Virus record (IMG/VR): IMGVR_UViG_2737471861_000014
Coordinates: 1 to 32,305 of that record
Strand: one strand, 5' to 3'
DNA: 32,305 nt
Origin: a virus
Lineage: Duplodnaviria; Heunggongvirae; Uroviricota; Caudoviricetes
The position numbers were made by a program, and so were the translations under genes. Below, one piece after another: positions 5,409 through 32,305 of the stretch (within the stretch, counting starts at the first letter, position 1; every line of letters starts with the position of its first letter). Below the pieces are notes generated by a model. It worked only from the letters and a program-made list of their open reading frames with translations, did no database searches and was not told the DNA's origin.

Positions 5409-5531
5409 TCAGGGTGCCATAACTCGTAGTTCTCAGCAATTCTCACTGGACGACAATAGACGTAAAAAAGCCCGCAGAGCTTGTGCTGTGTGGGCTTAGT
5501 AGACTTCATTGAACTTCAAACAACTAAAAAG

Positions 5532-5576
5532 TGGTGGAGCTGGCGGGAGTTGAACCCGCGTCCGAAATTCCTACAT
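5532..5576 (-). repeat. ssrA: 45-bp fragment identical to the 3' end of tmRNA gene ssrA (T-arm, acceptor stem and CCA): attachment-site repeat
   Basis: Reverse complement reads ATGTAGGAATTTCGGACGCGGGTTCAACTCCCGCCAGCTCCACCA, matching the E. coli ssrA 3' terminus as I recall it. Flanking sequence on the 5' side (5577 onward) is AT-rich and unrelated to tmRNA, so this is not a complete gene. Confidence 0.8.
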
Positions 5577-5768
5577 ACCATTTTTATTATAGTAAAAACA
5601 GTAGATTATGTTTGAAAACAATGTGTTAGTGTTATTTTGTATTTGCTCGTCTTACGCGTTTTTAATGCTCTGCCGCCAAAGTGCCGCCATTACATCAAGC
5701 ATCTAGAATAAAATTAGTTAATAAATTATAATTAATATGCTAATTGTTCTTGCATTCATAAGTGGGAC

Positions 5769-7505
5769 GTGATGAAAGAAAAAAAATTCGTTAGTGAGCT
5801 TTTCCTTGAAAATGGGCAGTTTATTTTAGTCGGTTTGACAGGTCGAACTGGTTCTGGTTGCACAACAACAGCTAATATTCTTGAAAACGAAAAAACAGTC
5901 TTCCCTGATGTAAGTAAATTACAGGGGTTTTACAAGGGATTGGATGTCCATCGTTATAATATAGTTAAAAAATTCGCAGAAAATCACTGGGAAAATTTTT
6001 ACTCAATTAAGGTGAGTGACCTAATCTCAGCGTATCTTCTGATGTTAACAGTTGAGGAAGCTTCTGAATTCATTCTATCATCTAATAAATTTATCAGTAA
6101 AGAGCATTTAGATATTGTATTAACTTTTGGTGTATTCTCAGATAATCTCATTTTGACAAGATTTAAAAATGTAATTGAGAATTTGCTTGATCATAATAGT
6201 GAATTGAAGTTTGATGAAAAAACGATTAATAAATTTATATCAATTTTGAAGTTAGTTAGAAAATTTACTAAAGAATTCAAAGCTGAACTAAATGAGATAA
6301 ACTCAAATTTATATGTTTCAGCCTATCAGTTAGCAGGTAAGTCAATTAGACGTCGTGGGCGTATTGAAGTCGATTTTGAAGATAAAGAGTTTATGCCTAA
6401 ATCTGTTTTTCATTTGCCGGAAACTATTAATAGGGTTATTAAATTAATAAGAAAAAGCAAAAGAGATAACGCATTAATTGTCATAGATGCTATTAGAAAT
6501 CCATATGAGGCAAAATTTTTTAAGGATAGATATTCTGCATTTCATTTAATGTCAATAAATGCCCCAGATGAACATCGAACAAACTATTTGCGGAAACTAC
6601 ATAAGTTTTCAGAAAAGCAGATAGAGGAAATAGATTCTGTAGAGTCAGGTAAAGGTGATAACTCTTACAAACATCTCACCAATCCAAATGTAACTAAATG
6701 TATTGAACTATCAGATATACACATTTTTAACCCAAAAAATGAATTTGATAATGACAATATTTTAAAAGCACAATTAGCGTGGTACATCGCACTGATGAAG
6801 CATCCTGGTCTGATAACACCTACTGCAATGGAAAGGGTTATGCAAGTTGCGTATACGGTAAAATTAAACTCTGGCTGTATATCTAGACAGGTGGGAGCTG
6901 TAGTAACTGATGGTGATAATTCAATAAAATCAGTTGGTTGGAATGATGTTGCCAACGGTCAGATTCCTTGCTCTATGAGATCTCTAGATGGCCTAATGAA
7001 CGATTTTGATGAAAAAACGTACAGTCATTATGAGAGAAATAATAGTTCTTTCAGAATTAAAGCTAATGAGAAACTCTTAAATTTTAGGGCGATAGATAAA
7101 ACTGGTGATATTTATAGAGGCAGGAACTTATCTTATTGTTTTAAAGATATACATAATGATCTTGATAAAGAGAAAAAAGGTAATCAAGTTCATACACGTG
7201 CATTACATGCTGAGGAAAACGCATTTTTACAACTTGCAAAATATGGTGGTATTGGCGTTCTGGGGGGGAAGTTGTATACAACTGCCAGTCCCTGTGAGTT
7301 GTGTGCGAAAAAAGCTTATCAGTTAGGTATATCTGAAATTGTATTTATTGATCCCTACCCAGGTATAGCTCAAGACCATATTATTAATATAGGTAGTAAG
7401 CCACCAAAGTTAATACAATTTAGAGGCGCAATTGGGAAGTCATATCACCGACTTTATGAGCAAATTATCCCGATAAAAGATGAGTTAGAATATCTCCTTG
7501 AGTAG
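5769..7505 (+). CDS. P-loop kinase-like N-terminal domain fused to a zinc-dependent cytidine/dCMP-deaminase-fold C-terminal domain; dCTP-deaminase-type antiphage defence protein (candidate)
   Basis: ORF of 578 aa. Walker-A-like GLTGRTGSGCTT near the N-terminus. C-terminal deaminase zinc motifs HAEENA and SPCELCAKK. AT-rich; located between the att repeat and the prophage integrase. Start is GTG 5769 or ATG 5772. Confidence 0.65.
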   Translation: MMKEKKFVSELFLENGQFILVGLTGRTGSGCTTTANILENEKTVFPDVSKLQGFYKGLDVHRYNIVKKFAENHWENFYSIKVSDLISAYLLMLTVEEASEFILSSNKFISKEHLDIVLTFGVFSDNLILTRFKNVIENLLDHNSELKFDEKTINKFISILKLVRKFTKEFKAELNEINSNLYVSAYQLAGKSIRRRGRIEVDFEDKEFMPKSVFHLPETINRVIKLIRKSKRDNALIVIDAIRNPYEAKFFKDRYSAFHLMSINAPDEHRTNYLRKLHKFSEKQIEEIDSVESGKGDNSYKHLTNPNVTKCIELSDIHIFNPKNEFDNDNILKAQLAWYIALMKHPGLITPTAMERVMQVAYTVKLNSGCISRQVGAVVTDGDNSIKSVGWNDVANGQIPCSMRSLDGLMNDFDEKTYSHYERNNSSFRIKANEKLLNFRAIDKTGDIYRGRNLSYCFKDIHNDLDKEKKGNQVHTRALHAEENAFLQLAKYGGIGVLGGKLYTTASPCELCAKKAYQLGISEIVFIDPYPGIAQDHIINIGSKPPKLIQFRGAIGKSYHRLYEQIIPIKDELEYLLE

Positions 7506-7885: not shown

Positions 7886-8902
7886 CTATCTTAAGTTGCA
7901 TAAAGGGTTTTTAGTTACCGCATCTTCAAGGTGATCGGGCGAAAAGTGGGCGTAAATCATCGTCATTTTTATATCGGCATGGCCCAGAATATCGCGCAGC
8001 ACCAGTATGTTTCCGCCATTCATCATAAAATGGCTGGCGAATGTATGACGTAGCACGTGAGTGCATTGGCCCTCTGGCAGCTCGATGCCAGCTCGCTTTA
8101 CTGCTCGTTCAAAGGCTTTTCTGCACGGGGTGAATAGCTTCCCTCTGTTCTTGGGGAGTTCGTCATACAGATCTTGAGATATCGGCACGGTGCGGTTTTT
8201 CTTACCCTTCGTCTTGGTATAAGTGATGCGGTATTTAGATAACTGATGGCCCTGCAGGTTTTCAGCTTCACTCCAGCGTGCGCCGGTGGCCAGGCATATT
8301 TTTGCAATCAAAAGCAGACTGGGGTTTTGAGAATCAGCGCAGGCATCTAGCAGACGTTTAATTTCTTCCGAGGTCAGGAACGCCAGTTCCCCCTCAGCGA
8401 TTTTAAATGTTGGCAGCCCGGCGAGAGGATTTGGTGCTGACCAGTGGCCTAGTTTTTTCAATGTGCCGAAAACCGATGATAGGTTACGTTGCTCAAGATT
8501 CACCGTGCGTGGTTTTACTGGCGACATTAGTGTGCCGTCTTCGTTACGAACGTCACCTTTTAACCGTGCTTCGCGGTATTTCGTAAAGTCACCGGCTGTC
8601 AGTTCTGAGGCGATGGGGTCGCCTAGACCATTACAGATAATTCTAAGTTTCGCCATGAGGCGCTTGGGGTCTGCGAGTGTCTGACCATACAGGGAATACC
8701 AAAGCTCAATTAATTCTGATAGGCGTCGCCGATCATCCTTTTCACCCAACCACGGTTTTTTATTCACTTCTTCCATTGTGAAGCTTTCAAAAGCAATGGC
8801 TTCGCCTTTCGTAGCAAATTGCTTACGCACGCGCTTACCATTGCGTCCATTGGGATAGCACTCACACAACCATTTTCCGTTCGGCTGTTTTCTGATGGTC
8901 AT
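7886..8902 (-). CDS. int: Prophage integrase, P2/186 tyrosine recombinase family
   Basis: ORF of 338 aa, the same length class as P2/186 Int. The C-terminal region contains HVLRHTFASHF and LGHADIKMTMIYAH, typical of the catalytic R/H/Y region. Sits immediately downstream of the CI-like gene. Confidence 0.9.
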   Translation of the reverse strand: MTIRKQPNGKWLCECYPNGRNGKRVRKQFATKGEAIAFESFTMEEVNKKPWLGEKDDRRRLSELIELWYSLYGQTLADPKRLMAKLRIICNGLGDPIASELTAGDFTKYREARLKGDVRNEDGTLMSPVKPRTVNLEQRNLSSVFGTLKKLGHWSAPNPLAGLPTFKIAEGELAFLTSEEIKRLLDACADSQNPSLLLIAKICLATGARWSEAENLQGHQLSKYRITYTKTKGKKNRTVPISQDLYDELPKNRGKLFTPCRKAFERAVKRAGIELPEGQCTHVLRHTFASHFMMNGGNILVLRDILGHADIKMTMIYAHFSPDHLEDAVTKNPLCNLR

Positions 8903-8903
8903 A

Positions 8904-9536
8904 TCAAAGGCTCTTAATGATTTTCAGTGCGCGGCCTACTACCTCAATGTCATCTAGGCCACACTCAAACGATGAATCATCCTGATGCACTACTAATTTG
9001 TTTCCCGGAAGTCGAGTCAATTTAACAATGCTTTTTATCCCGTCAATATCGACTAACCACATACCATTTACTGGTGGTGTTTGGTTGCGATCTATTAAAT
9101 AAGAATCACCAGAAGTAGTCACCAGCAGTAGGTTGCTTGAGTCTGAGGGGAGTATGCTGCTATCAATGATTGCTTTTCCAGCATCGACCAATAAACCACC
9201 GTTGAGAGTCGCCTTGTCAATTTCAGGAGATACTAGTTCAGAAAGAGGTACAACCTTGCTGGAGTTCACGGAATTGATATTTTTTTTAGGTTCAATGTTT
9301 GGACCTGGCTCCCCCTGTCCGGTGGTTAGCCACAGTAAAGAAACTCCTGTTTCCAAGGCGCACTGAATCACCCACTCTGCAGGAAAACTATCTCTTAAGT
9401 ATCTGTTTGCCATGGTGCTTTTTGATGCGCCTAAGTGATCGCAAAGTTGCTGTCTGGACTTGAAATCATAGGCTGCCATTAGTCTATGGATAGCCTCTCT
9501 TCCCCCTGTATTCTCTCCAACCTTTACCTGTATCAT
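8904..9536 (-). CDS. cI: CI-type immunity repressor (186-like)
   Basis: ORF of 210 aa directly upstream of int and divergent from the apl/cII operon. N-terminal HTH-like region. Position and size fit the 186 CI family. Confidence 0.75.
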   Translation of the reverse strand: MIQVKVGENTGGREAIHRLMAAYDFKSRQQLCDHLGASKSTMANRYLRDSFPAEWVIQCALETGVSLLWLTTGQGEPGPNIEPKKNINSVNSSKVVPLSELVSPEIDKATLNGGLLVDAGKAIIDSSILPSDSSNLLLVTTSGDSYLIDRNQTPPVNGMWLVDIDGIKSIVKLTRLPGNKLVVHQDDSSFECGLDDIEVVGRALKIIKSL

Positions 9537-15644: not shown

Positions 15645-16742
15645 TTGCCGAGAAAGATCAGGTTAAGGGGATGTATTGTGGCTGAGAACGGACCGATAGA
15701 AGAATTAGCAAAGATAGTATCATCGAAGATTTTTGAGCGCTTTAAATGGAGCATATCAGGGCCGTGTGATCAGGACTTTGGATGTATTGACGAAGAAAAT
15801 CATAAACCACTCGAAAAAAAGCAGGCTCATACACACCCTGTCGATGTGGTTTTTAGCTATAAAGACCCTTATTTAAATAAAACTATTTTATTGAATACTG
15901 ACCTAAAAAGTTACTCTAAGGGTTCTATTAATCCTGACATGATAGAAAAAGCGCTGACATCCCTAGGGTATACAATTTCCTGTGCTCAATATAGTCCGGA
16001 GTGGAGAGAGAAATATAATATATGCGTTGGGGATAGTGAGGTTAGAGGGTTATTGTTTGTTTATAATCATGATAACGATTTTGAGCATAACTTTTATGAT
16101 TTCTTCGATCCTCCCAAACCTGCAGGAAGAAAAAGAAAGCCGAAGGCAGTTAAATTAGATAATATAAAAGTGTCTGATGGGCAACAAATACATATAATTG
16201 AGCCTAAGTCGATTAGCTATATGTTATCTATAATCGCAGATATGAATGAATTAATCAGAGATAATCAATTCCCGAGAGATGAGTATGGTTTTTATTACCC
16301 TCAACTTACATATCATAAGGTAATTGTCACCGATGATTATTTACCTGCAACGATAGAGTCTTTGACTGCTCCATTTTTAATTATTAAACATGATGCAGTT
16401 TACTCGTATGATCGCGAGCTACAAAGAGAAGTTGAAGTTTATCCTGCAGGGTATGTTGTATATTATAATCGTCCGGGCTCCACAGATATGGAGTTTTATT
16501 ATCTCTTTGATCTTTTAACTAACTACCAGATTCTGAATGGAAAAAACAACATAAGAATACGTATCGCGACAAAAGATCGGAATGATTCAATAAGATCGCA
16601 TTTTAAACGGGCACTTCAGAAGTATGCTTTTGATTGGAATTATGATGATAGTGCAAAGGAAAAACTACTTTCTATGGATATTTATTTAGTTCCTACAGTT
16701 AAAGAGTTTTATAGTACTGAATCAACATCTTGGGATTATTGA
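15645..16742 (+). CDS. Hypothetical protein, gene 1 of an AT-rich three-gene cargo cassette
   Basis: ORF of 365 aa. Start is TTG 15645 or, more likely, GTG 15678 (AAGGGG RBS 7 nt upstream). Possible PD-(D/E)xK-like spacing (HPVDVVF ... NTDLK) near the N-terminus, a weak motif-level guess. No recognisable phage structural or replication homology. Confidence 0.55.
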   Translation: MPRKIRLRGCIVAENGPIEELAKIVSSKIFERFKWSISGPCDQDFGCIDEENHKPLEKKQAHTHPVDVVFSYKDPYLNKTILLNTDLKSYSKGSINPDMIEKALTSLGYTISCAQYSPEWREKYNICVGDSEVRGLLFVYNHDNDFEHNFYDFFDPPKPAGRKRKPKAVKLDNIKVSDGQQIHIIEPKSISYMLSIIADMNELIRDNQFPRDEYGFYYPQLTYHKVIVTDDYLPATIESLTAPFLIIKHDAVYSYDRELQREVEVYPAGYVVYYNRPGSTDMEFYYLFDLLTNYQILNGKNNIRIRIATKDRNDSIRSHFKRALQKYAFDWNYDDSAKEKLLSMDIYLVPTVKEFYSTESTSWDY

Positions 16743-16743
16743 T

Positions 16744-17868
16744 ATGAGCAATATTTATAGTGTGACGGATAAGGTTTTATGTGATGCTCTTAACCAGTCA
16801 CAAGTAACTCAAAATGAGATGAGAGAGCTTTATCTTTCAAGAGGTATAATTATTTCAAAAAACACCGATAGAAAATTATTAGCTAAAAACTTCTCAAAGT
16901 TCACTCATGATTACTATGATCATCAGAAAATTGCAGAGATATTAGGAAGTGAGCCTCGGAGGGAGCGTTCTACTTCAAGATTAGTATCTAATATGCCTGA
17001 AAAAACAATTTTATTAAAAGCGGCGGATTCGCTAAAAAAAGAGCTAACAGACCAAAAAGACCTCTGCCATATAGTTGCTGATAAAAGTGGCATGATAAAT
17101 ATTCATATAACTTATATGTCAACAAATTTTTCAAAAAGTGATTTCAAACAAGTCGTTAAAAAGCAAGCTGTCATAGAGGTAGAGCCAACAGAAGCTGGTT
17201 ATGTGATTCGCCGTCCAGATAATGAGCAAACTGAGGTTTATGAGAATCAGTTACTTGCTATCGTTGAAAGATTATCAAAGGAAAGAGCGATTGAGGAAGG
17301 AAAACCAATTTCGGACGCTACTCTCGATATCCAAGAAATAAGTCTAGAAAACATTGATTCCCCTCAGTCCAGAACTGATTTCTTTACGAAATTAATAAAT
17401 GGGCTTGAAGGTTATGAACTCGATGATGTAACAGATGCTTATGTTTATCACCCAAAACCAGAAGAGATTGAAGAGGAAGACGGCGAAACAGATTTAGGAG
17501 TACATGTTAGTAAGGCATCGTTGAAAGGGGAAGGGGTGCTCAAATCTGAAGAAATCAACTCACTTTATGAGCGTGGCTTTTATATATGTAAAATTAAATG
17601 GCGAGTTAAAGAGAAAGGTGCGGATCCAAATATTTTTGAGTTTGAAGCGCAATTTAACGACGCTCAAAATTTTAAGGGGTTTTCATATATAGCTAAAGGT
17701 ATTAAAAAATACAAAGGGGGTGGCGAGTATAATAAGTCAACAGTCCAGTTGAAAGATAGTCAGAAGTTATTTTTTAGTCGTATGATTGAAAAGGCAGCCC
17801 GTTCCATTATAATTGAACTAAATAAACAGGCTCAGGGGAAGAAAGATGGAAAGTCTGATCAGAGTTAA
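16744..17868 (+). CDS. Hypothetical protein, gene 2 of the three-gene cargo cassette
   Basis: ORF of 374 aa starting 1 nt after the gene 1 stop. Contains an acidic stretch (EEIEEEDGETD). No recognisable domain. Confidence 0.55.
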   Translation: MSNIYSVTDKVLCDALNQSQVTQNEMRELYLSRGIIISKNTDRKLLAKNFSKFTHDYYDHQKIAEILGSEPRRERSTSRLVSNMPEKTILLKAADSLKKELTDQKDLCHIVADKSGMINIHITYMSTNFSKSDFKQVVKKQAVIEVEPTEAGYVIRRPDNEQTEVYENQLLAIVERLSKERAIEEGKPISDATLDIQEISLENIDSPQSRTDFFTKLINGLEGYELDDVTDAYVYHPKPEEIEEEDGETDLGVHVSKASLKGEGVLKSEEINSLYERGFYICKIKWRVKEKGADPNIFEFEAQFNDAQNFKGFSYIAKGIKKYKGGGEYNKSTVQLKDSQKLFFSRMIEKAARSIIIELNKQAQGKKDGKSDQS

Positions 17869-18547
17869 ATGGAATAGATTGAAGTCTAATCTTACATTAA
17901 GTGAGATTGCTTTTTATATAAAGAGTAACAAATACTCTGAAGAACTTGGCTATGGTTATTCTGACTTTGAAGTTTCATCTGACGTACTATCAGCTACGTA
18001 TACTGAAGCTAAGTTGAATAAACAGACTTCAGTTGATCCTTTGGGTAACGAAAATGAACAAGAGTTCATTACTTATGAGTCAATTCAGTTCTCTATATCT
18101 AAACTCATAGGTAGGTTATATTTATTATCAGTTTACAATCCACCAAAATCAATAAAGGCTTTGACAGAGCGACTTAGTGCGGATTCAGGTTATAAAATAG
18201 GGTTTGGCATCGTTGATATTAAACTGTCTGAGTATTTGGATTCGCTGCATAAAAAATATGATTTGGAACTTGTTAGTATCAAGAAGGTTAAGGTTAGTAA
18301 TTTGATAGTTAATGATAACTCTAAGGCAACCGTAGAGGTTACATCTAAGAAAAATGCATTTGATGATGTGAAGGATATTATTGGGGATAAAGCATATTCT
18401 CTTGATAAGGTCAGGGCGGCAGGATATGTTCTAGGACATCGTTGTGAATTTGAGATATCGAAGAATGGTTCTGTCTGTGCTAACGAGGGTATGGTTAAAT
18501 ATTTAACTGAGACAATAGTTTCTCATATTCTTGAAAGGGAAATTTAA
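17846..18547 (+). CDS. Hypothetical protein, gene 3 of the three-gene cargo cassette
   Basis: ORF of 233 aa whose start overlaps the end of gene 2 by 23 nt, preceded by a GGGGAAGAAAG RBS. No recognisable domain. Confidence 0.55.
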   Translation: MESLIRVKWNRLKSNLTLSEIAFYIKSNKYSEELGYGYSDFEVSSDVLSATYTEAKLNKQTSVDPLGNENEQEFITYESIQFSISKLIGRLYLLSVYNPPKSIKALTERLSADSGYKIGFGIVDIKLSEYLDSLHKKYDLELVSIKKVKVSNLIVNDNSKATVEVTSKKNAFDDVKDIIGDKAYSLDKVRAAGYVLGHRCEFEISKNGSVCANEGMVKYLTETIVSHILEREI

Positions 18548-23442: not shown

Positions 23443-24093
23443 ATGAGCCTGAGTCCCGCACGGCAGCATCGCCTGCGCGTTCAGGCTGAACAGGCCGCTC
23501 GCGAGGGTGGCAGTGTTCGCCACGCGTCGGGCTATGACCTGATGCTGCTGCAACTGGCGGAAGACCGCCGCCGTCTCAAGGGCGTTCAGTCCACGGTCAA
23601 AAAAGCGGAAATCAAGGTGGAGCTGCTGCCGAAATATGCCGCCTGGGCGGAGGGCGTTATGGCTGCCGGAGGCGCTCAACAGGATGACGTGCTGATGTAC
23701 GTGATGCTGTGGCGCATTGATGCCGGAGATTATGCCGGGGCGCTGGAGATCGGGCGTCATGCCCTGCGTCATGGCTGGGTGATGCCGCTGGGTAACCGCA
23801 ACGTGCAGACCGTGCTGGCAGAGGAAATGGCAGACGCGGCGCAGAGCGCAATGCTTGCCGCCACCGGCTTTGATGCCGATCTGTTGCTGCAGACGCTGGA
23901 GCTGACAGACGGTCTGGATATGCCGGACCAGTCACGGGCGCGTCTGCATAAAGCGATTGGCGCTGTCCTGAGTGAAAGTAACCCGGCTTCCGCCCTTAAT
24001 CATCTCAACCATGCATTACAGCTCGATCCCCGCTGTGGCGTGAAAAAAGACAAACAGCAGCTGGAGCGCAGACTGCGCAATGACAGCCGCTGA
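23443..24093 (+). CDS. M: Terminase small/endonuclease subunit (P2 gpM family)
   Basis: ORF of 216 aa. The segment GAQQDDVLMYVMLWRIDAGDYAGALEIGRHAL resembles P2 M as I recall it. Confidence 0.75.
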   Translation: MSLSPARQHRLRVQAEQAAREGGSVRHASGYDLMLLQLAEDRRRLKGVQSTVKKAEIKVELLPKYAAWAEGVMAAGGAQQDDVLMYVMLWRIDAGDYAGALEIGRHALRHGWVMPLGNRNVQTVLAEEMADAAQSAMLAATGFDADLLLQTLELTDGLDMPDQSRARLHKAIGAVLSESNPASALNHLNHALQLDPRCGVKKDKQQLERRLRNDSR

Positions 24094-24188
24094 CAGAACG
24101 TGCCCCCGCGCACGGGCGGCACGGGGTGGCGAAAGGCACTACCACATCAAAACCCCGTCCACCGCCCTTTATTTCAGGAGAAAGCAGC

Positions 24189-24653
24189 ATGAAGTTTGTT
24201 GCGTCAGAACAGGCACCGGAACAGGCGGAAATCATCAGGAATACGCCGTTCTGGCCTGATGTGGACTTGTCGGAGTTTCGCAGTGTCATGCGCACTGACG
24301 GCACGGTGACGCAGCCGCGTTTAAAGCAGGTTGCGCTGTCGGCAATTTCGGAGGTCAACGCAGAGCTGTATGAGTTTCGCAGACGTCAGCAGATGCTGGG
24401 GTATGCGTCGCTGGCTGAGGTCCCGGCGGAACAGCTGGACGGCAAAAGTGAGCGCATTCAGCATTATTTCAACGCGGTTTACTGCTGGGCACGCGCCATG
24501 CTCAACGAACGTTACCAGGACTATGACGCCACGGCGTCCGGTGTGAAGCGGGGCGAGGAACTGGCGGAAGCAAGCGGTGATTTGTGGCGTGACGCCCGCT
24601 GGGCCATCAGCCGGGTGCAGGATGCGCCGCACTGCACAGTGGAGCTTATCTGA
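24189..24653 (+). CDS. L: Head completion/stabilisation protein (P2 gpL family)
   Basis: ATG at 24189 preceded by AGGAG. The track ORF extends upstream to 24126. Confidence 0.7.
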   Translation: MKFVASEQAPEQAEIIRNTPFWPDVDLSEFRSVMRTDGTVTQPRLKQVALSAISEVNAELYEFRRRQQMLGYASLAEVPAEQLDGKSERIQHYFNAVYCWARAMLNERYQDYDATASGVKRGEELAEASGDLWRDARWAISRVQDAPHCTVELI

Positions 24654-24856
24654 TGAAAGTGCGTGCGCATCAGTATGACACGGTGGACGCGCTTTGCTGG
24701 CGTCATTACGGGCGCACGCAGGGTGTCACGGAGCAGGTACTGAAGGCAAATCCGGGGCTTGCCGAATACGGCCCCTTTTTACCTCACGGGCTGCAGGTGG
24801 AGCTACCGGACATTCCGACCACCACCACCGTGCAGACCGTCCAGCTATGGGACTGA
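24653..24856 (+). CDS. X: Tail protein X (P2 gpX family)
   Basis: ORF of 67 aa, the same length as P2 X, between L and the lysis genes. Confidence 0.7.
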   Translation: MKVRAHQYDTVDALCWRHYGRTQGVTEQVLKANPGLAEYGPFLPHGLQVELPDIPTTTTVQTVQLWD

Positions 24857-24859
24857 ATT

Positions 24860-25075
24860 ATGACGCTTGAGCGAATCAGCGCCTTTATCACGTATTGCAT
24901 CGCCGTCGTGCTGGCCTGGCTGGGCGATTTGTCCATCAAGGATGCCTCAACGCTGGGCGGCCTGATGATTGGTGTGCTGATGCTGGCTATCAACTGGTAC
25001 TACAAACACAAAGCCTACCAGCTTCTGCTCAACGGGCAGATCTCGCGGGAGGACTATGAATCCATCAATCGTTAA
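24860..25075 (+). CDS. Holin (two hydrophobic segments; possibly a pinholin)
   Basis: ORF of 71 aa with two hydrophobic stretches and a charged C-terminus, immediately upstream of the endolysin. Confidence 0.6.
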   Translation: MTLERISAFITYCIAVVLAWLGDLSIKDASTLGGLMIGVLMLAINWYYKHKAYQLLLNGQISREDYESINR

Positions 25076-25568
25076 ACGCTGCCTTGTCGGGGCCGTGCTG
25101 GCTATTGCTGCCACGCTGCCGGGTTTTCAGCAGCTTCACACCTCCGTGGAAGGGCTGAAACTGATTGCCGATTACGAAGGTTGTCGTCTGCAGCCGTATC
25201 AGTGCAGCGCGGGTGTCTGGACCGACGGCATTGGTAATACGTCGGGCGTCATTCCCGGCAAAACCATTACGGAGCGACAGGCAGCAGAAGGGCTGATCTC
25301 CAACGTGCTGCGTGTGGAGCGGGCGCTGGAAAGGTGTGTGAAGCAACAGCCGCCGCAGAAGGTGTATGACGCTGCGGTGTCGTTTGCCTTCAACGTGGGA
25401 ACGGGCAATGCCTGCAGTTCCACACTGGTGAAATTACTCAATCAGCGGCGCTGGGCGGATGCGTGCCGACAGTTGCCGCGCTGGGTTTATGTGAAAGGTG
25501 TTTTTAATCAGGGGCTGGATAACCGCCGTGCGCGGGAGATGGCCTGGTGCTTACAGGGAGCAAACTGA
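25056..25568 (+). CDS. Endolysin, phage lysozyme family with N-terminal signal-anchor-release (SAR)-like hydrophobic segment
   Basis: ORF of 170 aa. Hydrophobic N-terminus (CLVGAVLAIAATLPG). Motifs GVWTDGIGNT and SFAFNVGTGN ... RW resemble phage P21-type lysozymes. Confidence 0.8.
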   Translation: MNPSIVKRCLVGAVLAIAATLPGFQQLHTSVEGLKLIADYEGCRLQPYQCSAGVWTDGIGNTSGVIPGKTITERQAAEGLISNVLRVERALERCVKQQPPQKVYDAAVSFAFNVGTGNACSSTLVKLLNQRRWADACRQLPRWVYVKGVFNQGLDNRRAREMAWCLQGAN

Positions 25569-25569
25569 A

Positions 25570-25947
25570 ATGAAAAAGAAAGTAATCAGCGGGCTGTTTC
25601 TGATGTTATGGATGGCGCTGTTGATCGCAGCAATGGTGTATCCGCAGGGGATTTTTCCGGTACTGGCAGCGTCCGGTGTCTGGGTAGCCTGTCTGCTGAC
25701 ATGGGCGGTAATTCCGGTAGCACTGGCTGCGTTAATTAAGAACGGCCCGCTCTGGCAGGAGTTGAGGGCATCTTTGCTAAAGACCATTACCCGAAAAGAA
25801 AACGTATTTATCAGCTGGGTGATGCGATTGCTGATTGTCGTAAGTTTCGCCTGGACGGGGTGGGCTATTACCCTGGTCTTTTATCTGCTGACCGTTATTG
25901 CCTTCTGGATGATCCGTAATCAGATTGCGCAACAGGTAGCAGCATGA
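25570..25947 (+). CDS. LysA-like membrane protein (lysis timing)
   Basis: ATG at 25570. Multiple hydrophobic helices. Position equivalent to P2 lysA. Confidence 0.5.
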   Translation: MKKKVISGLFLMLWMALLIAAMVYPQGIFPVLAASGVWVACLLTWAVIPVALAALIKNGPLWQELRASLLKTITRKENVFISWVMRLLIVVSFAWTGWAITLVFYLLTVIAFWMIRNQIAQQVAA

Positions 25948-26372
25948 ACCGGTTGCTGCTGGTTGTGCTGGCGTTATTACTGGCGGCGCTGGGCTGGCAG
26001 ACGTGGCGGCTGGCTGATGCCAGCCAGACCATCAGCACGCAGGCAGACGAGCTTCGGAGCAAAAGCCAGGCACTGGCAAAGAGCAACAGCCAGCTTATCA
26101 GCCTGTCCATTCTGACTGAAACCAATAACCGGGAGCAGGCGCGGCTCTATGCCGAAGCAGAACAGACCAGTGTACTGCTGAGACAACGACAACACCGGAT
26201 TGAGGAACTGAAACGTGAGAACGAGGATTTACGCCGCTGGGCTGATACTCCTTTGCCTGCTGACATTATCCGGCTGCGGGAACGCCCCACACTCACCGGA
26301 GGTGCAGCTTACCGTCAGTGGTTGTCCGCGAGTGACGCCGTGTCGGCTGGGACAGGCAGCGCCGCGCACTAA
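25944..26372 (+). CDS. Inner-membrane spanin (LysB/Rz-like)
   Basis: ORF of 142 aa with N-terminal TM segment (LLLVVLALLLAALGW) followed by a coiled-coil-like region. Confidence 0.7.
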   Translation: MNRLLLVVLALLLAALGWQTWRLADASQTISTQADELRSKSQALAKSNSQLISLSILTETNNREQARLYAEAEQTSVLLRQRQHRIEELKRENEDLRRWADTPLPADIIRLRERPTLTGGAAYRQWLSASDAVSAGTGSAAH

Positions 26373-26505
26373 CGGTGGCCTGAACGCGTTGCTGGATGAA
26401 ACGGAGGCCGCCTGGGCGGTCTGTGCAGACAAAGTGGACATGATTATTGCGTGTCAGGAGCGAAACAGTGAACAAACCACAATCCCTGCGCCACGCCCTC
26501 AATAA
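26215..26505 (+). CDS. Outer-membrane lipoprotein spanin (LysC/Rz1-like), start embedded in the LysB gene in another frame
   Basis: ORF of 96 aa with lipobox LTLSGC after a signal-peptide-like N-terminus. Overlaps the 3' part of the LysB gene. Confidence 0.7.
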   Translation: MRTRIYAAGLILLCLLTLSGCGNAPHSPEVQLTVSGCPRVTPCRLGQAAPRTNGGLNALLDETEAAWAVCADKVDMIIACQERNSEQTTIPAPRPQ

Positions 26506-26899
26506 AGCGGTGCCTTATGTCCGCAATAACCCGGACAAACTGCATCTGTTTGTGGATAACGGTTCGCTGGTTGCCACGGGGGCCAGCTCCATGTCATGGG
26601 AGTACCGCTATACCCTGAACGTGGTGATAGAGGATTTCAGCGGCGACCAGAATCTGCTGATGGCCCCGGTTTTACTGTGGCTTCGGGATAACCAGCCCGA
26701 TGCCATCAATAACCCGGCGTTACGGGAAAAGCTATTCACCTTTGAGGTGGATATTTTGCGCAACGATGTCTGTGATATCAGCCTTAACCTGCAATTGACG
26801 GAACGTGTGCTGGTCAGTACTGACGGCAGTGTGTCGAGCGTTGAAGCTGTAGCAGAACCCGATGAACCTGAAGAAATGTGGACGGTGAAACGTGGCTGA
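26468..26899 (+). CDS. R: Tail completion protein R (P2 gpR family)
   Basis: Likely GTG start at 26468 (AGGAG RBS), giving an N-terminus NKPQSLRHALNKAV that aligns with P2 R. The track ORF begins at 26447. Confidence 0.7.
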   Translation: MNKPQSLRHALNKAVPYVRNNPDKLHLFVDNGSLVATGASSMSWEYRYTLNVVIEDFSGDQNLLMAPVLLWLRDNQPDAINNPALREKLFTFEVDILRNDVCDISLNLQLTERVLVSTDGSVSSVEAVAEPDEPEEMWTVKRG

Positions 26900-27338
26900 A
26901 CTGCAGAAGGTGGACGACTGGCTGAGTGCCTTGCTGGCGAATCTGGAACCAGCCACGAGAAGCCGCATGATGCGCCAGCTGGCGCAGGAACTGCGCCGGA
27001 CACAGCAGCAGAATATCAGGATGCAGCGCAATCCAGATGGCAGCAGTTATGAACCGCGCAGGGTAACAGCACGCAGCAAAAAAGGCCGCATCAAACGTCA
27101 GATGTTTGCAAAGTTGCGCACCACAAAATACCTGAAAACTGCCGCCAGCGCCGACTCTGCCAGCGTACAGTTTGAAGGCAAGGTGCAGCGTATTGCCCGT
27201 GTTCACCATTACGGCCTGCGTGATCGCGTCAGTCGCAAAGGACCGGAGGTCCGTTACGCAGAGCGCCGCCTGCTGGGTGTAAATGATGATGTTGAGGCAA
27301 TGACCCGCGACATGATTCTGCAATGGCTGGCGGGGTGA
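26892..27338 (+). CDS. S: Tail completion/virion morphogenesis protein S (P2 gpS family)
   Basis: ORF of 148 aa overlapping the R stop, in the conserved R-S-V order. Confidence 0.7.
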   Translation: MAELQKVDDWLSALLANLEPATRSRMMRQLAQELRRTQQQNIRMQRNPDGSSYEPRRVTARSKKGRIKRQMFAKLRTTKYLKTAASADSASVQFEGKVQRIARVHHYGLRDRVSRKGPEVRYAERRLLGVNDDVEAMTRDMILQWLAG

Positions 27339-27342
27339 TCTT

Positions 27343-27360
27343 TGTATCAGCACTGATACA
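27343..27360. promoter_or_regulatory. Perfect TGT-N12-ACA dyad: candidate late activator site upstream of V
   Basis: TGTATCAGCACTGATACA lies within the 20-bp perfect palindrome TTGTATCAGCACTGATACAA, in the S-V intergenic region. Confidence 0.5.
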
Positions 27361-27406
27361 AGTTGCAGCACTGCCGCCTTTCTTCCCCTGATGGCAACCT
27401 TTCCCT

Positions 27407-27985
27407 ATGAACGCACAATTAACAGAAATCATGCGCCTTATCACCAACCTGATCCGCACAGGGGTAGTCACCGAAGTGGACAGGGAAAACTGGCTTTGCC
27501 GGGTGAAAACGGGCGAGCTTGAAACCAACTGGATCAGCTGGCTGACGCTGCGTGCCGGGAATGCCCGTACATGGTGGCGACCATCGGAAGGTGAGCAGGT
27601 GGTGCTGCTGAGTCTGGGCGGCAATCTGGAAACCGCCTTTGCGCTGCCCGCTGTCTATTCGAATCAGTTCGCACCACCGTCGACGTCGGCGGACGCCTGC
27701 GTGACAGAACATCCTGACGGTGGCTGGTTTGAATACGAACCCGCCACCGGGCGCTGGTATGTCAGGGGCATCAAATCAATGGTCATTGAGGCTGCTGACA
27801 ACATCACCATGAAAACCAGTGAGTTTGTACTGGAGGCTGACCGCACGCGCATTAACAGCGAAGTGGTGATCAATGGTGGCGTTACCCAGGGCGGCGGAGC
27901 GATGAGTTCTAACGGGATCGTGGTTGATGCGCATCAGCATACTGGCGTCCTGAAAGGCGGCGATACAACCGGAGGCCCGGTATGA
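27407..27985 (+). CDS. V: Baseplate spike/assembly protein V (P2 gpV family)
   Basis: ORF of 192 aa with a P2 V-like N-terminus (IRTGVVTEVD ... RTWWRPSEGEQV). Confidence 0.8.
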   Translation: MNAQLTEIMRLITNLIRTGVVTEVDRENWLCRVKTGELETNWISWLTLRAGNARTWWRPSEGEQVVLLSLGGNLETAFALPAVYSNQFAPPSTSADACVTEHPDGGWFEYEPATGRWYVRGIKSMVIEAADNITMKTSEFVLEADRTRINSEVVINGGVTQGGGAMSSNGIVVDAHQHTGVLKGGDTTGGPV

Positions 27986-28341
27986 CGCTTTATAGCGGGA
28001 TGAACAATACCAGCGGCAAAGTCATTACTGATATTGATCATCTGCGCCAGTCGGTGCGGGACATTCTGCTGACACCGCAGGGTAGCCGTATTGCCCGCCG
28101 GGAATATGGTTCCCTGCTGTCGGCACTGATAGATCAGCCACAAAATCCGGCATTACGCCTGCAGGTCATGTCGGCAGTGTATGTGGCGCTGAGTCGCTGG
28201 GAGCCACGGTTGACGCTGGATTCCATCACCATCAACAGCAATTTTGACGGTTCAATGGTGGTGGAGCTGACCGGGCGGCGGAATAACGGTGTGCCTGTGT
28301 CCCTTTCCGTATCAACAGGAGCAGAGAATGGCAGTGATTGA
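27982..28341 (+). CDS. W: Baseplate protein W (P2 gpW, gp25-like)
   Basis: ORF of 119 aa. GSRIARREYGSLLS ... QPQNPALRL matches P2 W as I recall it. Confidence 0.8.
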   Translation: MTLYSGMNNTSGKVITDIDHLRQSVRDILLTPQGSRIARREYGSLLSALIDQPQNPALRLQVMSAVYVALSRWEPRLTLDSITINSNFDGSMVVELTGRRNNGVPVSLSVSTGAENGSD

Positions 28342-29236
28342 CCTTTCGCAGTTGCCTGCACCGCAGATTGTGGATGTGCCGGACTTTGAGACGCTGCTTG
28401 CCGAACGCAAGGCAGAATTTGTGGCGCTTCATCCGAAAGATGAGCAGGAAGCAGTGATCCGCACGCTGGAACTGGAATCTGAACCCGCCACTAAATTGTT
28501 GCAGGAGAACGCTTACCGTGAGTTGCTTCTGCGCCAGCGTATTAACGAAGCCGCGCAGGCGGTGATGGTGGCTTACGCGATGGGCGGCGATCTTGACCAG
28601 CTCGCTGCCAACTACAACGTGACACGCCTGACGGTGACGCCTGCTGATAATGATGCTGTGCCGCCCGTTGCAGCTGTGATGGAAAGCGATGAAGCGTTGC
28701 GCCTGCGTGTGCCTGCAGCCTTTGAAGGGCTTTCTGTTGCGGGGCCAACTGCAGCTTATGAATTTCATGCCCGAAGCGCCGACGGTCGGGTGGCGGATGC
28801 CAGTGCAACCAGCCCGGCACCTGCAGAGGTGGTGCTGACTGTCCTTAGCCGCGAAGGCGATGGAACTGCAGAAAAAGACCTGCTGGACGTGGTGGAAAAA
28901 GCTCTGAACAGTGAGAACGTCCGCCCGGTGGCTGACCGTCTTACGGTTCGCAGCGCAGAAATCATCCCGTATCGCGTGGAAGCCACCATTTTTCTCTATC
29001 CGGGACCGGAAGCTGAGCCGGTAATGGCAGCGGCAAAAGCCAGTCTGCAGAAGTACATTGCCAGCCAGACGAGGCTTGGTCGGGATATTCGCCGTAGCGC
29101 CATCTTTGCTGCTCTGCATGTTGAGGGTGTTCAACGTGTGGAACTGGCTTCTCCGCTGGCGGATGTGGTCCTGAACAAAACACAGGCGGCATCATGTACG
29201 CAGTGGAGCGTAACCAACGGAGGAACGGATGAATAG
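28328..29236 (+). CDS. J: Baseplate protein J (P2 gpJ family)
   Basis: ATG at 28328 (AGGAG RBS). N-terminus MAVIDLSQLPAP and strong collinearity with P2 J (FEGLSVAG ... HVEGVQRVELA). Confidence 0.8.
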   Translation: MAVIDLSQLPAPQIVDVPDFETLLAERKAEFVALHPKDEQEAVIRTLELESEPATKLLQENAYRELLLRQRINEAAQAVMVAYAMGGDLDQLAANYNVTRLTVTPADNDAVPPVAAVMESDEALRLRVPAAFEGLSVAGPTAAYEFHARSADGRVADASATSPAPAEVVLTVLSREGDGTAEKDLLDVVEKALNSENVRPVADRLTVRSAEIIPYRVEATIFLYPGPEAEPVMAAAKASLQKYIASQTRLGRDIRRSAIFAALHVEGVQRVELASPLADVVLNKTQAASCTQWSVTNGGTDE

Positions 29237-29834
29237 TCTGCTGCCACCGGGTTCAACTTCACTGGAGCGCCGACTGGCGCAAACCTGTAGCGGGATTTCT
29301 GATTTGCAGGTGCCGCTGCGTGACTTGTGGAATCCGGCTACCTGTCCGGTCAGCTTCCTGCCTTATCTCGCCTGGGCGTTCTCTGTGGATCGCTGGGACG
29401 AGGGCTGGACAGAAAGCGTCAAACGCCAGGTAGTGAAGGATGCTTTTTATATTCATCAGCATAAAGGAACCACCAGTGCCGTGCGGCGGGTGGTGGAACC
29501 GTTCGGATTCCTGATCCGCATTATTGAGTGGTGGCAGACCGGAGAAACACCGGGCACGTTTCGCCTGGATATCGGCGTGCAGGACCAGGGCATCACTGAA
29601 GATACCTATCTGGAACTTGAGCGACTGATAAGCGATGCCAAACCATGTAGCCGCCACATGATCGGCATGTCCATCAATCTGCAGACCAGCGGCCCGCATT
29701 GGGTGGGAGCCGCCAGCTATCTTGGCGAAGAAATCACGATCTATCCGTATATCAACGAAACGATTATTTCCGGTGGCACCGCGCATGAAGGCGGGGCGGT
29801 CCATGTTATTGACACAATGAGAGTGAATCCATGA
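29229..29834 (+). CDS. I: Baseplate/tail-fibre attachment protein I (P2 gpI family)
   Basis: ORF of 201 aa. WNPATCP ... LPYLAWAFSVDRWDE matches P2 I. Confidence 0.75.
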   Translation: MNSLLPPGSTSLERRLAQTCSGISDLQVPLRDLWNPATCPVSFLPYLAWAFSVDRWDEGWTESVKRQVVKDAFYIHQHKGTTSAVRRVVEPFGFLIRIIEWWQTGETPGTFRLDIGVQDQGITEDTYLELERLISDAKPCSRHMIGMSINLQTSGPHWVGAASYLGEEITIYPYINETIISGGTAHEGGAVHVIDTMRVNP

Positions 29835-31360
29835 GCACAAAATTTTATACCCTGCTGACGGATATTGGCGCGGCGAAACTTGCCAGCGCCGCCGCGCTCG
29901 GTGTGCCGCTAAAAATTACCCATATGGCGGTGGGCGATGGCGGTGGAGTATTGCCAACGCCGGACGCAAAGCAGACGGCACTGGTAAATGAGAAACGCCG
30001 GGCTGCGCTGAATATGCTTTATATCGACCCGCAGAACAGCAGCCAGATTATTGCCGAACAGGTGATCCCTGAAAACGAGGGCGGTTGGTGGATACGTGAA
30101 GTGGGCTTGTTTGATGAGTCCGGGGCATTGATTGCCGTGGGCAACTGCCCGGAAAGCTATAAGCCGCAACTGGCTGAAGGTAGCGGGCGCACTCAGACCG
30201 TGCGCATGGTGCTGATTACCAGCAGTACGGACAATATCACCCTGAAAATCGACCCTGCTGTAGTGCTGGCAACCCGCAAGTATGTGGATGACAAGGCACT
30301 GGAGCTGAAGGTGTACGCGGATGATCAGATGGCAAAACATCTTGCCGCACCGGACCCGCATTCACAGTACGCGCCAAAAGCCAGCCCGACATTTACCGGA
30401 ACCCCCAAAGCGCCAACGCCAGCGGCGGGGAATAATACCACGCAGGTTGCGACCACTGCGTTTGTACAGGCGGCACTGACGGCCCTTATTAATGGTGCGC
30501 CAGCCACGCTGGACACGCTGAAAGAAATAGCCGCAGCCATTAACAATGATCCGAATTTCAGTACCACCATTAACAATGCGCTGGCACTAAAAGCACCGTT
30601 GTCGAGTCCGGCACTCACCGGAACGCCAACAGCCCCCACGGCGGCGCAGTCGGTCAACAATACACAGATTGCCACTACGGCTTTTGTGAAATCGGCGATT
30701 GCAGGAATGGTGGGTTCTGCACCTGCTGCACTGGATACACTGAACGAACTGGCGGCGGCACTGGGGAATGATCCGAACTTTGCCACGACAATGCTTAATG
30801 CGCTGGCAGGTAAACAACCGCTGGACAATACGCTTACCAATTTGAGTGGAAAGGATGTAGCTGGTCTTCTCACATACCTTGGTTTGGGAGAAGGCTCTGC
30901 ATTACCTGTTGGTGTGCCTGTTCCATGGCCTTCAGCCACACCGCCAACAGGCTGGCTGAAATGCAACGGTGCGGCATTTTCTGCTGAAGAATACCCGGAA
31001 CTGGCAAAGGCTTATCCAACAAATAAATTACCTGATTTACGCGGTGAGTTTATTCGTGGCTGGGATGACGGGCGCGGTATTGATGCAGGACGTGTTTTAT
31101 TGAGTATTCAGGCCGGAATGCTGGAAAAGCACCGTCATCCTGTTGTCGCCAACGATGGGTATGACTCAAAAGAGGAATGGGAACTGGCGACAATCTTCAG
31201 AAGAGCATATACGCAAGGCAGGGGGCTTGATGCTGCCGCTGCCGGAGGGAGTCTGATCCCATCACCGACACTTCATTCACGAGGGAGTATCGGTAATACT
31301 GGCGGGAATGAAACCCGTCCACGAAATATTGCATTTAACTATATCGTGAGGGCTGCATAA
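29831..31360 (+). CDS. H: Tail fibre protein H (P2 gpH-like N-terminus; collar-type C-terminal receptor-binding region)
   Basis: ORF of 509 aa. The N-terminal ~170 aa match P2 H. Two tandem tail-fibre repeats. The C-terminus (PWPS ... GWLKCNGAAFS ... LPDLRGEFIRGW) resembles Mu S / e14-type tail-collar domains rather than P2 H. Confidence 0.8.
   Translation: MSTKFYTLLTDIGAAKLASAAALGVPLKITHMAVGDGGGVLPTPDAKQTALVNEKRRAALNMLYIDPQNSSQIIAEQVIPENEGGWWIREVGLFDESGALIAVGNCPESYKPQLAEGSGRTQTVRMVLITSSTDNITLKIDPAVVLATRKYVDDKALELKVYADDQMAKHLAAPDPHSQYAPKASPTFTGTPKAPTPAAGNNTTQVATTAFVQAALTALINGAPATLDTLKEIAAAINNDPNFSTTINNALALKAPLSSPALTGTPTAPTAAQSVNNTQIATTAFVKSAIAGMVGSAPAALDTLNELAAALGNDPNFATTMLNALAGKQPLDNTLTNLSGKDVAGLLTYLGLGEGSALPVGVPVPWPSATPPTGWLKCNGAAFSAEEYPELAKAYPTNKLPDLRGEFIRGWDDGRGIDAGRVLLSIQAGMLEKHRHPVVANDGYDSKEEWELATIFRRAYTQGRGLDAAAAGGSLIPSPTLHSRGSIGNTGGNETRPRNIAFNYIVRAA
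30371..30814 (+). repeat. Tandem ~222-bp (74-aa) in-frame repeat within the tail fibre gene
   Basis: Two consecutive 74-aa units: APKASPTFTGTPKAP ... DPNFSTTINNALALK and APLSSPALTGTPTAP ... DPNFATTMLNALAGK. Confidence 0.6.
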
Positions 31361-31962
31361 TGGATAACGCCGTATTAAATAGCGAGCTTATTACCACGAA
31401 GGCGGGGAATATTACCGTCTATAACTATGATGGTGAGACGCGGGAATATATTTCTGCATCAACTGAATATCTTGCAGTGGGTGTCGGTATTCCAGCATAT
31501 TCCTGTTTAGACGCTCCTGGTACATCTAAGGCTGGTTATACAATTTGCCGTTCTGTGGATTTAAAATCATGGGAATATGTGTCAGACCATCGCGGTGAAA
31601 TCATCTATAACACCGAAACGGGAGATGCCAAAGAAATCACAGCACTAGGCGACTATCCCGAAAATACAACCACTATCGCCCCGTTAACGCCATACGATAA
31701 ATGGGATGGTGAAAAATGGGTGACAGATACTGAGGCACAACACGGTGCCGCAGTAGAAGCGGCAGAAGCACAGCGCCAGTCACTGATTGATGCAGCAATG
31801 GCTTCCATCAGTCTGATTCAACTGAAATTGCAGGCCGGACGTAAACTGACGCAGGCAGAAACAACCAGACTTAACGCTGTGCTGGATTACATTGACGCGG
31901 TGACGGTAACAGATACCAGCACCGCGCCGGATGTCATCTGGCCTGAACTGCCGGAGGCGTAG
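31360..31962 (+). CDS. G: Tail fibre assembly chaperone (P2 gpG-like)
   Basis: ORF of 200 aa immediately after H. C-terminus LDYIDAVTVTDTSTAPDVIWPELPEA is typical of Tfa proteins. Confidence 0.75.
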   Translation: MDNAVLNSELITTKAGNITVYNYDGETREYISASTEYLAVGVGIPAYSCLDAPGTSKAGYTICRSVDLKSWEYVSDHRGEIIYNTETGDAKEITALGDYPENTTTIAPLTPYDKWDGEKWVTDTEAQHGAAVEAAEAQRQSLIDAAMASISLIQLKLQAGRKLTQAETTRLNAVLDYIDAVTVTDTSTAPDVIWPELPEA

Positions 31963-32305
31963 GCCATTCAATATCTGGCGCACTGGAGGTATCAACCAGC
32001 TCCAGTGCATCCAGATAATCCAGCCACAAATTATATTGCGCCAGTTCCTCACCTTTCAGACGACCAATAGCGGCTTTACCGGGCCATTGCTTACTGTTCA
32101 TGTATTCGTTGGCCTGGTTAATTAGTAGCTGTCTTTCTGATTCAGTAATTTCAATAAGCTCTTCATGCGTGGGTGGAGGAATATCTGCCCACGCAGGCAG
32201 CCCATCATCTCCGGCAATACGGATTTTTCCTTGTGGCGGTTCAGCCATAAACTCACTGATAATATTTTGATTTACTTCCTTAGCGTCTGATAAATCCCAT
32301 CCCTC
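31934..32305 (-). CDS. Second tail fibre assembly protein (partial; 5' end lies beyond the window), convergent with G
   Basis: The minus-strand frame is open to the window edge. C-terminus LWLDYLDALELVDTSSAPDIEWPTPP parallels the G C-terminus. Its 3' end overlaps G by 29 bp. Confidence 0.6.
   Translation of the reverse strand, partial: EGWDLSDAKEVNQNIISEFMAEPPQGKIRIAGDDGLPAWADIPPPTHEELIEITESERQLLINQANEYMNSKQWPGKAAIGRLKGEELAQYNLWLDYLDALELVDTSSAPDIEWPTPPAVQAR

Follow-up and report, generated by a model that had tools for sequence, protein, structure and literature searches.

Close to the right end of a stretch of Escherichia coli prophage DNA, two tail-fibre assembly genes run toward each other and overlap, which raises the question of whether the adjoining fibre gene, H, ends in a segment of DNA that can be inverted. 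The stretch analyzed here (the window, 32,305 bp) is the whole of one draft contig, JWZJ01000011.1 (E. coli, GCA_000819015.1), so that no DNA is available to the right of it. The host element is an apparently complete P2-like prophage of E. coli (Peduoviridae, with 186-type immunity). P2-type head, lysis, and replication genes precede the tail module, and a GPA replication protein, an integrase, and a CI repressor are present. A Pfam table for positions 23831 to 32305 (L009) gives the tail genes in the order V-W-J-I-H-G with matching families. The features at the end of this module are collected in Table 1.

Table 1. Features of the putative invertible tail-fibre locus at the right end of the window
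Feature	Position	Strand	Remarks
H, constant part	29831..30878	+	Outside the invertible segment; codons 1-349 and first base of codon 350
Left 26-bp crossover site (pix/gix-like)	30867..30892	+	TTCTCACATACC-TT-GGTTTGGGAGAA; inside the H ORF
H, variable 3' part	30881..31360	+	StfE-type tip with Collar domain, currently joined; first gene piece inside the segment
G, assembly chaperone of the current tip (TfaE-type)	31360..31962	+	200 aa; Caudo_TAP PF02413, E 1.1e-31
tfa', alternative chaperone (TfaP-like), antiparallel	31934..32305	-	Caudo_TAP PF02413, E 1.3e-28; truncated where the window ends
Overlap between G and tfa'	31934..31962	.	29 bp

According to the ORF listing, H (29831-31360, plus strand) is an uninterrupted frame encoding 509 aa, and its two parts have different relatives. 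Amino acids 1 to 350 make up the constant part, which carries the N-terminal Phage_tail_fib family (PF12571, E = 6e-65), while amino acids 355 to 509 form a replaceable tip with a Collar match (PF07484, E = 1e-15). H genes of P2-like prophages match the constant part throughout, and e14-type cassettes cease to match at its 3' end. The variable part, in turn, is 99.4 to 99.7% identical to an orphan "phage tail protein" that adjoins an invertase gene in the prophage of strain MINF_1D and in the e14 element of TUM1880. Such a division of a fibre gene, with the constant 5' part outside a segment and the variable 3' part inside it, is characteristic of invertase switches.

The point at which the two parts of H meet has the features of an invertase crossover site. 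The initial annotation had suggested looking for a crossover repeat within H, and one is indeed present at 30867-30892: it is 26 bp long, has imperfect dyad symmetry around a 2-bp core, lies inside the fibre ORF, and fits the 26-bp invertase sites tabulated in PMC4134206. The core dinucleotide TT (30879-30880) falls in codon Leu350, and the site is translated as ..LLTYLGLGE... Comparison with the K-12 locus shows that it contains the exact inverted repeat of the e14 P segment, TTGGTTTGGGAGAAGG, at which that segment has been found by experiment to invert (PMC12529663); the inner half and core are identical to this mapped repeat. Homology to the cassettes of other, unrelated elements starts exactly at the site (30867-30880). 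The site occurs once in the window, where none is expected by chance, and searches of the window with left-type and right-type sequences, allowing up to three mismatches, returned no second copy. A shufflon, with multiple segments and an Rci tyrosine recombinase, was therefore rejected, given this single copy and relatives in which two sites accompany a serine recombinase. An 18-nt inverted repeat at about 31881-31898 and 32007-32024 was also dismissed as a recombination site, as both chaperones encode LDY(I/L)DA there on opposite strands. This repeat, which flanks the chaperone overlap, is found in relatives as well.

Downstream of the tip, two convergent PF02413 chaperone genes are found, one per tip. 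G is 86% identical to TfaE of K-12, and tfa' shares 54% identity with K-12 TfaP, the C termini being nearly the same. A 104-aa ORF at 31934-32248 was considered as a complete minus-strand gene and rejected, since the frame runs on to the window end: the 372 bp of the 3' part of tfa' that are present comprise 124 codons without a stop. As the gene measures 441 to 444 bp (147 aa) in relatives, its 5' end is expected about 72 bp beyond the window; in one relative (L005), the N terminus of the protein is MNEYVYSARHNAFFPVDMIDKYKS. The ORF coordinates and the two Pfam matches bear out the initial annotation, which had described a second Tfa-like gene running antiparallel to G with a 29-bp overlap of the C-terminal ends. 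It had also likened the layout to those of the Mu G and P1 C segments, an interpretation that is supported here, with the e14 P segment sharing the same arrangement. An overlap of 29 bp recurs in K-12 e14 (tfaP at 3133-3546 and tfaE at 3518-4120 in L006 coordinates) and in every relative inspected, indicating a conserved layout rather than chance. The draft contig probably stops in tfa' because chaperone and cassette DNA of this kind is repeated.

Eight full-length relatives were inspected, including MINF_1D, the e14 elements of TUM1880 and K-12 (L006), GPEC389 (L007), GB089, phage L001, L005, and L008. From the crossover site to the contig end, the window is 99.4 to 99.7% identical to invertible cassettes of complete E. 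coli genomes, the TUM1880 e14 variant reaching 99.4% over the entire stretch of cassette that the window contains. No exact copy of the window's sequence turned up among 5426 complete E. coli genomes. The H protein of L008 (GCA_014140385.1) is the same as that of the window, and its locus shows the complete order H-G-tfa'-Sv'-invertase-FI together with the pair of sites; in P2-like prophages, the sheath gene FI comes after the invertase. Beyond the position at which the window ends, the eight relatives have an alternative gp53-like tip, an inverted partner site, and a recombinase gene, the partner site and invertase lying approximately 0.6 to 1.3 kb past that position. These are the elements that the initial annotation had placed beyond the window, and its view holds in all eight, save that the search pattern used found no partner site in GPEC389. 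The partner site reads TTCTCCCAAACC-AA-CGTTTAWGAAAA, so that the plus-strand core AA becomes TT when inverted, and agreement in the inner half and core is exact in seven of the eight; the sequence expected from the relatives is TTCTCCCAAACCAACGTTTAWGAAAA. Automated calls of "partial" or orphan tail-fibre genes and of an extra antiparallel chaperone are explained by such a cassette.

The invertase gene is full length in six of the eight relatives (184 to 188 aa). The 188-aa protein starts with MLIGYVRVS, contains Resolvase and HTH_7 domains, and has its catalytic serine at position 9. That of L005 is 86% identical to K-12 PinE and matches the Mu Gin structure 3UJ3 over 184 residues (E = 3e-92). 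Switches of this family have a Fis-bound recombinational enhancer within the 5' part of the invertase gene. A crude scan of the relatives' invertase genes showed conserved Fis-like 15-mers centered near +29, +101/104, and +138; at this coarse level, no two Fis sites with a spacing of 48 bp were seen in the 5' region.

If the segment inverts, both orientations should be found, as the initial annotation had recognized, and among complete genomes they are. Of 5426 complete E. coli genomes, 439 have the junction of the H constant part with the Collar tip that is seen in the window, versus 74 with a junction to the gp53-like tip. The P2-like prophage of MINF_1D carries a cassette 99.7% identical to that of the window in the opposite orientation, and its H is intact (473 aa), with the gp53-like tip at the end. 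Furthermore, when the segments of L008 and L005 were inverted in silico, the 509-aa H remained open, now with a length of 465 or 473 aa and a gp53-like tip. For E. coli prophages, P2-like ones among them, sequencing and PCR have demonstrated that such segments invert (PMC4272514, PMC4134206).

The same data bear on two other accounts of the locus. The last ~1.4 kb could belong to the cassette of another prophage, such as e14, misjoined to H through a shared repeat: the segment differs little from e14-type P segments, a genome can contain as many as 11 such sequences, and the contig ends within a repeated chaperone gene. However, the identical junction in 439 complete genomes, the order H-G-tfa' in closed genomes and in L008 with its identical H, and the unbroken 509-aa frame across the junction make an assembly artefact very improbable, and we largely reject it. 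Even less credible is a plain convergent pair, in which two chaperones serve two coexpressed fibres without DNA rearrangement. While some phages do have more than one Tfa gene and the contig displays a single orientation, the strand encoding tfa' lacks a fibre gene of its own, offering in relatives only a promoterless tip exon, and neither the crossover site inside H nor the flipped cassette of MINF_1D is accommodated.

We therefore favor, with a probability of roughly 80%, the reading that positions 30867-32305 are the left ~1.44 kb of a Pin/Gin-type invertible tail-fibre cassette of ~1.85 to 1.9 kb, situated between the H constant part and FI of a P2-like prophage. Its right half, comprising the rest of tfa', a gp53-like tip exon on the minus strand, an inverted partner site, and a 188-aa serine invertase, is predicted by sequence comparison with the eight relatives.

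A less intact state of this locus has to be weighed at the same point, as the right half lies beyond the contig end. The cassette might be fixed or dependent on help in trans, having lost its own invertase, its right site, or both, with tfa' either a fossil or flipped by a Pin-type invertase of another prophage. NCTC11023 offers a precedent: in an otherwise similar P2-like locus, the same H-tfa-tfa'(-)-Sv'(-) layout abuts the sheath gene directly, with no invertase gene. More broadly, 695 genomes have the invertase-FI junction, and about 300 of the ~1005 genomes that match the FI 5' region are without it. The invertase gene of phage L001 is shortened (495 bp, 164 aa) and H of GB089 is frameshifted (433 aa as found), showing that cassette decay does occur, and prophage Phi4 of EC958 still inverts with a truncated invertase, presumably in trans (PMC4134206). 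Nevertheless, a recombinase gene is kept by all eight relatives, among them the two nearest (99.4 to 99.7% identity) and L008, seven retain the exact partner site, and in the window itself the left site is intact and tfa' is open over all 124 codons present. A remnant thus appears rather unlikely, and a complete cassette is the reading that we favor.

By analogy with Gin, Hin, and Pin, an invertase dimer would bind each crossover site, and the two sites would then synapse. Cleavage of all four strands would take place at the identical core dinucleotides and leave 2-nt staggers; one half would then turn by 180 degrees, and rejoining of the strands would leave the segment flipped. The flip is predicted to join the H constant part in frame to the other tip and to move the other chaperone downstream in the late operon, and invertases of other resident prophages could act in trans. 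Lysogen populations would release phage with two receptor specificities. Should the prophage be inducible, particles of both specificities would bear on host-range prediction and on phage or tailocin engineering.

The 99.4% identity to an e14 variant, together with homology that ends exactly at the fibre-side crossover site, might also suggest that an e14-type module of invertase plus segment was imported very recently into the P2-like prophage, a scenario based on sequence similarity that we consider decidedly unlikely. If it were true, resident PinE, PinQ, and PinR might flip the cassette in trans, and the chimeric fibre that the prophage makes after flipping might block receptors and so protect against phages, analogous to what is reported for e14 StfE2.

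Viewed against known systems, the cassette is real but ordinary and already described, its mechanism, site, and organization all being known. The e14 P segment of E. coli K-12 and its invertase PinE were reportedly characterized by Plasterk and van de Putte in 1985. The locus described here shares with e14 the inner half-site and core TTGGTTTGGGAGAAGG and the order tip, chaperone, chaperone', tip', invertase. It differs in that the constant part is a P2 H fibre (PF12571), whereas that of e14 is an Stf N terminus, in that the host is an apparently complete P2-like prophage, where the cassette lies between H and FI, and in that the alternative tip in relatives is of the gp53-like type.

Also similar are the invertible tail-fibre loci in P2-like and other prophages of EPEC E2348/69 and ST131 strain EC958, both orientations of which coexist in cultures (PMC4272514, PMC4134206). 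Element and prophage are both of the type described here, with segments of ~1.8 to 2.2 kb, 26-bp sites, and Collar tips. Compared by description, the 5' site of EC958 Phi2, TCCTCAATTACCTTGGTTTAGGAGAA, differs in detail from that of the window, and one of the EPEC loci has three repeats and four variants.

The Mu G segment with Gin follows the same logic and the order Sc, Sv-U, U'-Sv', gin. It is 3 kb long (PMC3575834, from which, together with PMC4134206 and PMC12529663, the family features are also taken), in contrast to ~1.85 to 1.9 kb in the relatives, and there is no relationship in the constant part of the fibre or in the phage backbone. In the P1 C segment, the serine invertase Cin likewise flips alternative fibre C termini and chaperones. 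The P1 C segment exceeds the present one in size, and its inverted repeats are long. According to Sandmeier 1994, as quoted in PMC4134206, it falls within the same consensus set of crossover sites. Finally, phage P2 itself shares the late tail operon order and the N-terminal family of H; it has no invertible cassette, and the slot upstream of FI is occupied by fun(Z).

In the ORF listing, the window's final 2.5 kb holds three genes: the tail-fibre gene H, the chaperone gene G of the current fibre tip and an antiparallel second Tfa-family gene, tfa' (table). The N-terminal domain of H is the P2-type fibre domain of Pfam. The convergent Tfa-like pair with a 29-bp overlap described in the initial annotation is borne out; both proteins belong to PF02413. 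The tfa' gene is incomplete, its frame staying open for all 124 codons to the last window base; since its homologues in relatives measure 441-444 bp, ~72 bp of its 5' end are absent. An imperfect inverted repeat around the overlap, present in all relatives, arises because both chaperones encode a conserved LDY(I/L)DA motif on opposite strands. Within the constant shaft of H, the translation has two tandem repeats (..TGTPKAPTPAAGNNTTQVATTAFV.. / ..TGTPTAPTAAQSVNNTQIATTAFV..), a typical fibre-shaft repeat architecture.

Features of the window
Feature	Position	Strand	Remarks
HATPase_c + HEF_HK protein / Response_reg_2 protein gene pair	142-3610	+	
Second tyrosine integrase	4137-5408	-	
578-aa protein	5769-7505	+	PADLOC dCTP-deaminase defence model, E 1e-145
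Prophage integrase	7886-8902		start of P2-like prophage
Three consecutive ORFs	15645-18547	+	365, 374, 233 aa; PADLOC Hp1/Hp2/Hp3 (PDLC03004-6), E 7e-64, 2e-47, 1.5e-8
H, tail-fibre protein	29831-31360	+	509 aa; PF12571 N-terminal domain, E 6e-65; Collar domain near C-terminus
Tandem shaft repeats in H	30380-30830		~75 aa each; H aa ~185-335
Left crossover site	30867-30892		inside H
G, tail-fibre assembly chaperone family	31360-31962	+	200 aa; PF02413, E 1e-31
Imperfect inverted repeat	~31881-31898 / ~32007-32024		18 nt
G/tfa' common stretch	31934-31962		
tfa'	ends 31934, runs to 32305	-	PF02413, E 1e-28

The crossover repeat sought inside H is present as TTCTCACATACC-TT-GGTTTGGGAGAA, a single copy in the window that is not expected by chance. 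Its inner half and core contain the 16-bp repeat TTGGTTTGGGAGAAGG, which experiments have identified as the repeat where inversion of the e14 P segment takes place (PMC12529663; the K-12 locus was also examined). The site likewise agrees with the 26-bp invertase crossover sites tabulated for E. coli prophages and with the Sandmeier consensus as quoted in the same paper (PMC4134206). Matches of 99.0-99.8% identity in complete E. coli genomes all start at ~30867-30880 and extend to the window end. Since the TT core falls within codon Leu350 of the motif LLTYLGLGE, the constant part of H (H-const) comprises aa 1-350 and the exchangeable tip aa 355-509; between them, GLGE (aa 351-354) comes from the shared inner half-site.

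Eight full-length relatives were inspected, six of them P2-like elements (a phage of O157:H43, L001, and prophages of MINF_1D, L002; GB089, L004; MB20, L005; GPEC389, L007; and GCA_014140385.1, L008) and two of them e14 copies (TUM1880, L003; K-12, L006). An exact-protein lookup of the window's H gave two places, the draft contig JWZJ01000011.1 and L008, whose H protein is thus identical. Past the position of the window end, relatives carry the remainder of tfa', a tip exon on the minus strand with a gp53-like C-terminal domain (PF21882), an inverted second site (in seven of the eight; the GPEC389 partner was not located) and a recombinase gene, followed in P2-like elements by the sheath gene FI. 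Thus the partner repeat and invertase predicted to lie rightward are seen in relatives. The + strand sequence of the right-hand site is TTCTCCCAAACC-AA-CGTTTA(A/T)GAAAA; once inverted, it shares its inner half and core TT with the left site and differs from it in the outer half, which is the anatomy expected for the serine-invertase family. The recombinases have Resolvase and HTH_7 domains, and all start MLIGYVRVS, in which Ser9 is the catalytic residue (compare PMC3575834). That of MB20 matches the Mu Gin crystal-structure sequence across 184 residues (E 3e-92) and is 86% identical to K-12 PinE. For the Fis-bound enhancer of this family, a coarse scan of the relatives' invertase genes picked up conserved Fis-like 15-mers centred near +29, +101/104 and +138, with no two of them spaced 48 bp.

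Inversion in silico at the core dinucleotides leaves H open: the 509-aa Collar-tip protein becomes a gp53-like-tip protein of 465 aa (L008) or 473 aa (L005). A natural flipped state exists in MINF_1D, whose cassette is 99.7% identical to that of the window in the opposite orientation; it has an intact 473-aa H with a gp53-like tip, and the Collar tip and G-type chaperone adjoin the invertase. Among 5426 complete E. coli genomes, junction-spanning queries found H-const::Collar in 439 and H-const::gp53-like in 74. Misassembly is very improbable, as the H-const::Collar junction and gene order recur in many closed genomes. Published work shows both orientations coexisting within cultures, on the one hand for e14 and on the other for P2-like prophages of EPEC E2348/69 (PMC4272514) and, by long reads, in three EC958 prophages (PMC4134206).

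The last 8,475 bases of JWZJ01000011.1 (assembly GCA_000819015.1, 32,305 bp) are identical to window 23831-32305; the window is therefore an entire draft contig, with no DNA rightward of it. The contig ends inside tfa', away from the crossover site. Chaperone and cassette sequences occupy up to 11 places per complete E. coli genome, and because they recur in several prophages per genome, the stop probably reflects such repeated DNA rather than mixed orientations. The right half of the cassette thus falls outside the window, and a locked or trans-dependent remnant in this genome has to be weighed. The invertase-FI junction occurs in 695 complete genomes, yet ~300 match the FI part only. In NCTC11023 (L011 1887-4629), an H-tfa-tfa'-tip' layout abuts FI without an invertase, L001 has a shortened invertase gene (8800-9294) and GB089 a frameshifted H (L004 6532-7833). 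These three loci represent decayed forms of this switch, and with the FI-only genomes they lend the remnant reading some weight, unlikely as we consider it. Invertases of other prophages could plausibly act in trans, by analogy with the e14 segment, which PinQ inverts (PMC12529663), and with EC958 Phi4, which inverts although its invertase is truncated (PMC4134206).

The left 5.7 kb of the window consists of E. coli chromosomal or island DNA (99.5% identity). The second integrase and the adjoining 578-aa protein (4137-7505) make up a small island of their own immediately upstream of the prophage; ssrA is annotated nearby in related genomes, but the window itself yielded no tRNA or tmRNA gene. 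The HATPase_c/Response_reg_2 pair, with no PADLOC match, could form a two-gene system for conflict or signalling within the same island. The prophage carries a CI repressor of the 186 type and the replication gene gpA, and its head, lysis and tail genes follow the order of P2. Three ORFs lacking Pfam matches fill the P2 cargo slot between gpA and the portal gene and are a candidate prophage-borne defence cassette.

The evidence supports the invertible host-range segment first proposed from the Mu G / P1 C layout, here a Pin/Gin-type tail-fibre inversion cassette in a P2-like prophage with only its left half in the window. The split fibre gene, left crossover site, current tip with its chaperone and opposed second chaperone are seen directly; the second tip, right site and invertase are predicted from relatives. 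By established Gin/Hin/Pin biochemistry, an invertase dimer would bind each site and the sites would synapse; both strands of the identical cores would then be cut with a 2-nt stagger, through a phosphoserine linkage, before 180-degree subunit rotation and religation. The late operon would then read either H-const::Collar-tip with G or H-const::gp53-like-tip with Tfa', giving two adsorption specificities.

Cassettes of this kind are already known. The DNA common to the P2-like MINF_1D locus and TUM1880 e14 comprises the 5' part of the invertase gene and the entire invertible segment, with similarity ending exactly at the fibre-side crossover site. The unit moving between unrelated phages is therefore invertase plus segment, which joins different fibre shafts at the crossover site, in agreement with an established view (Sandmeier 1994, as cited by PMC4134206) rather than a new one. 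Canonical P2, in contrast, is without the cassette, and fun(Z) fills the slot before FI.
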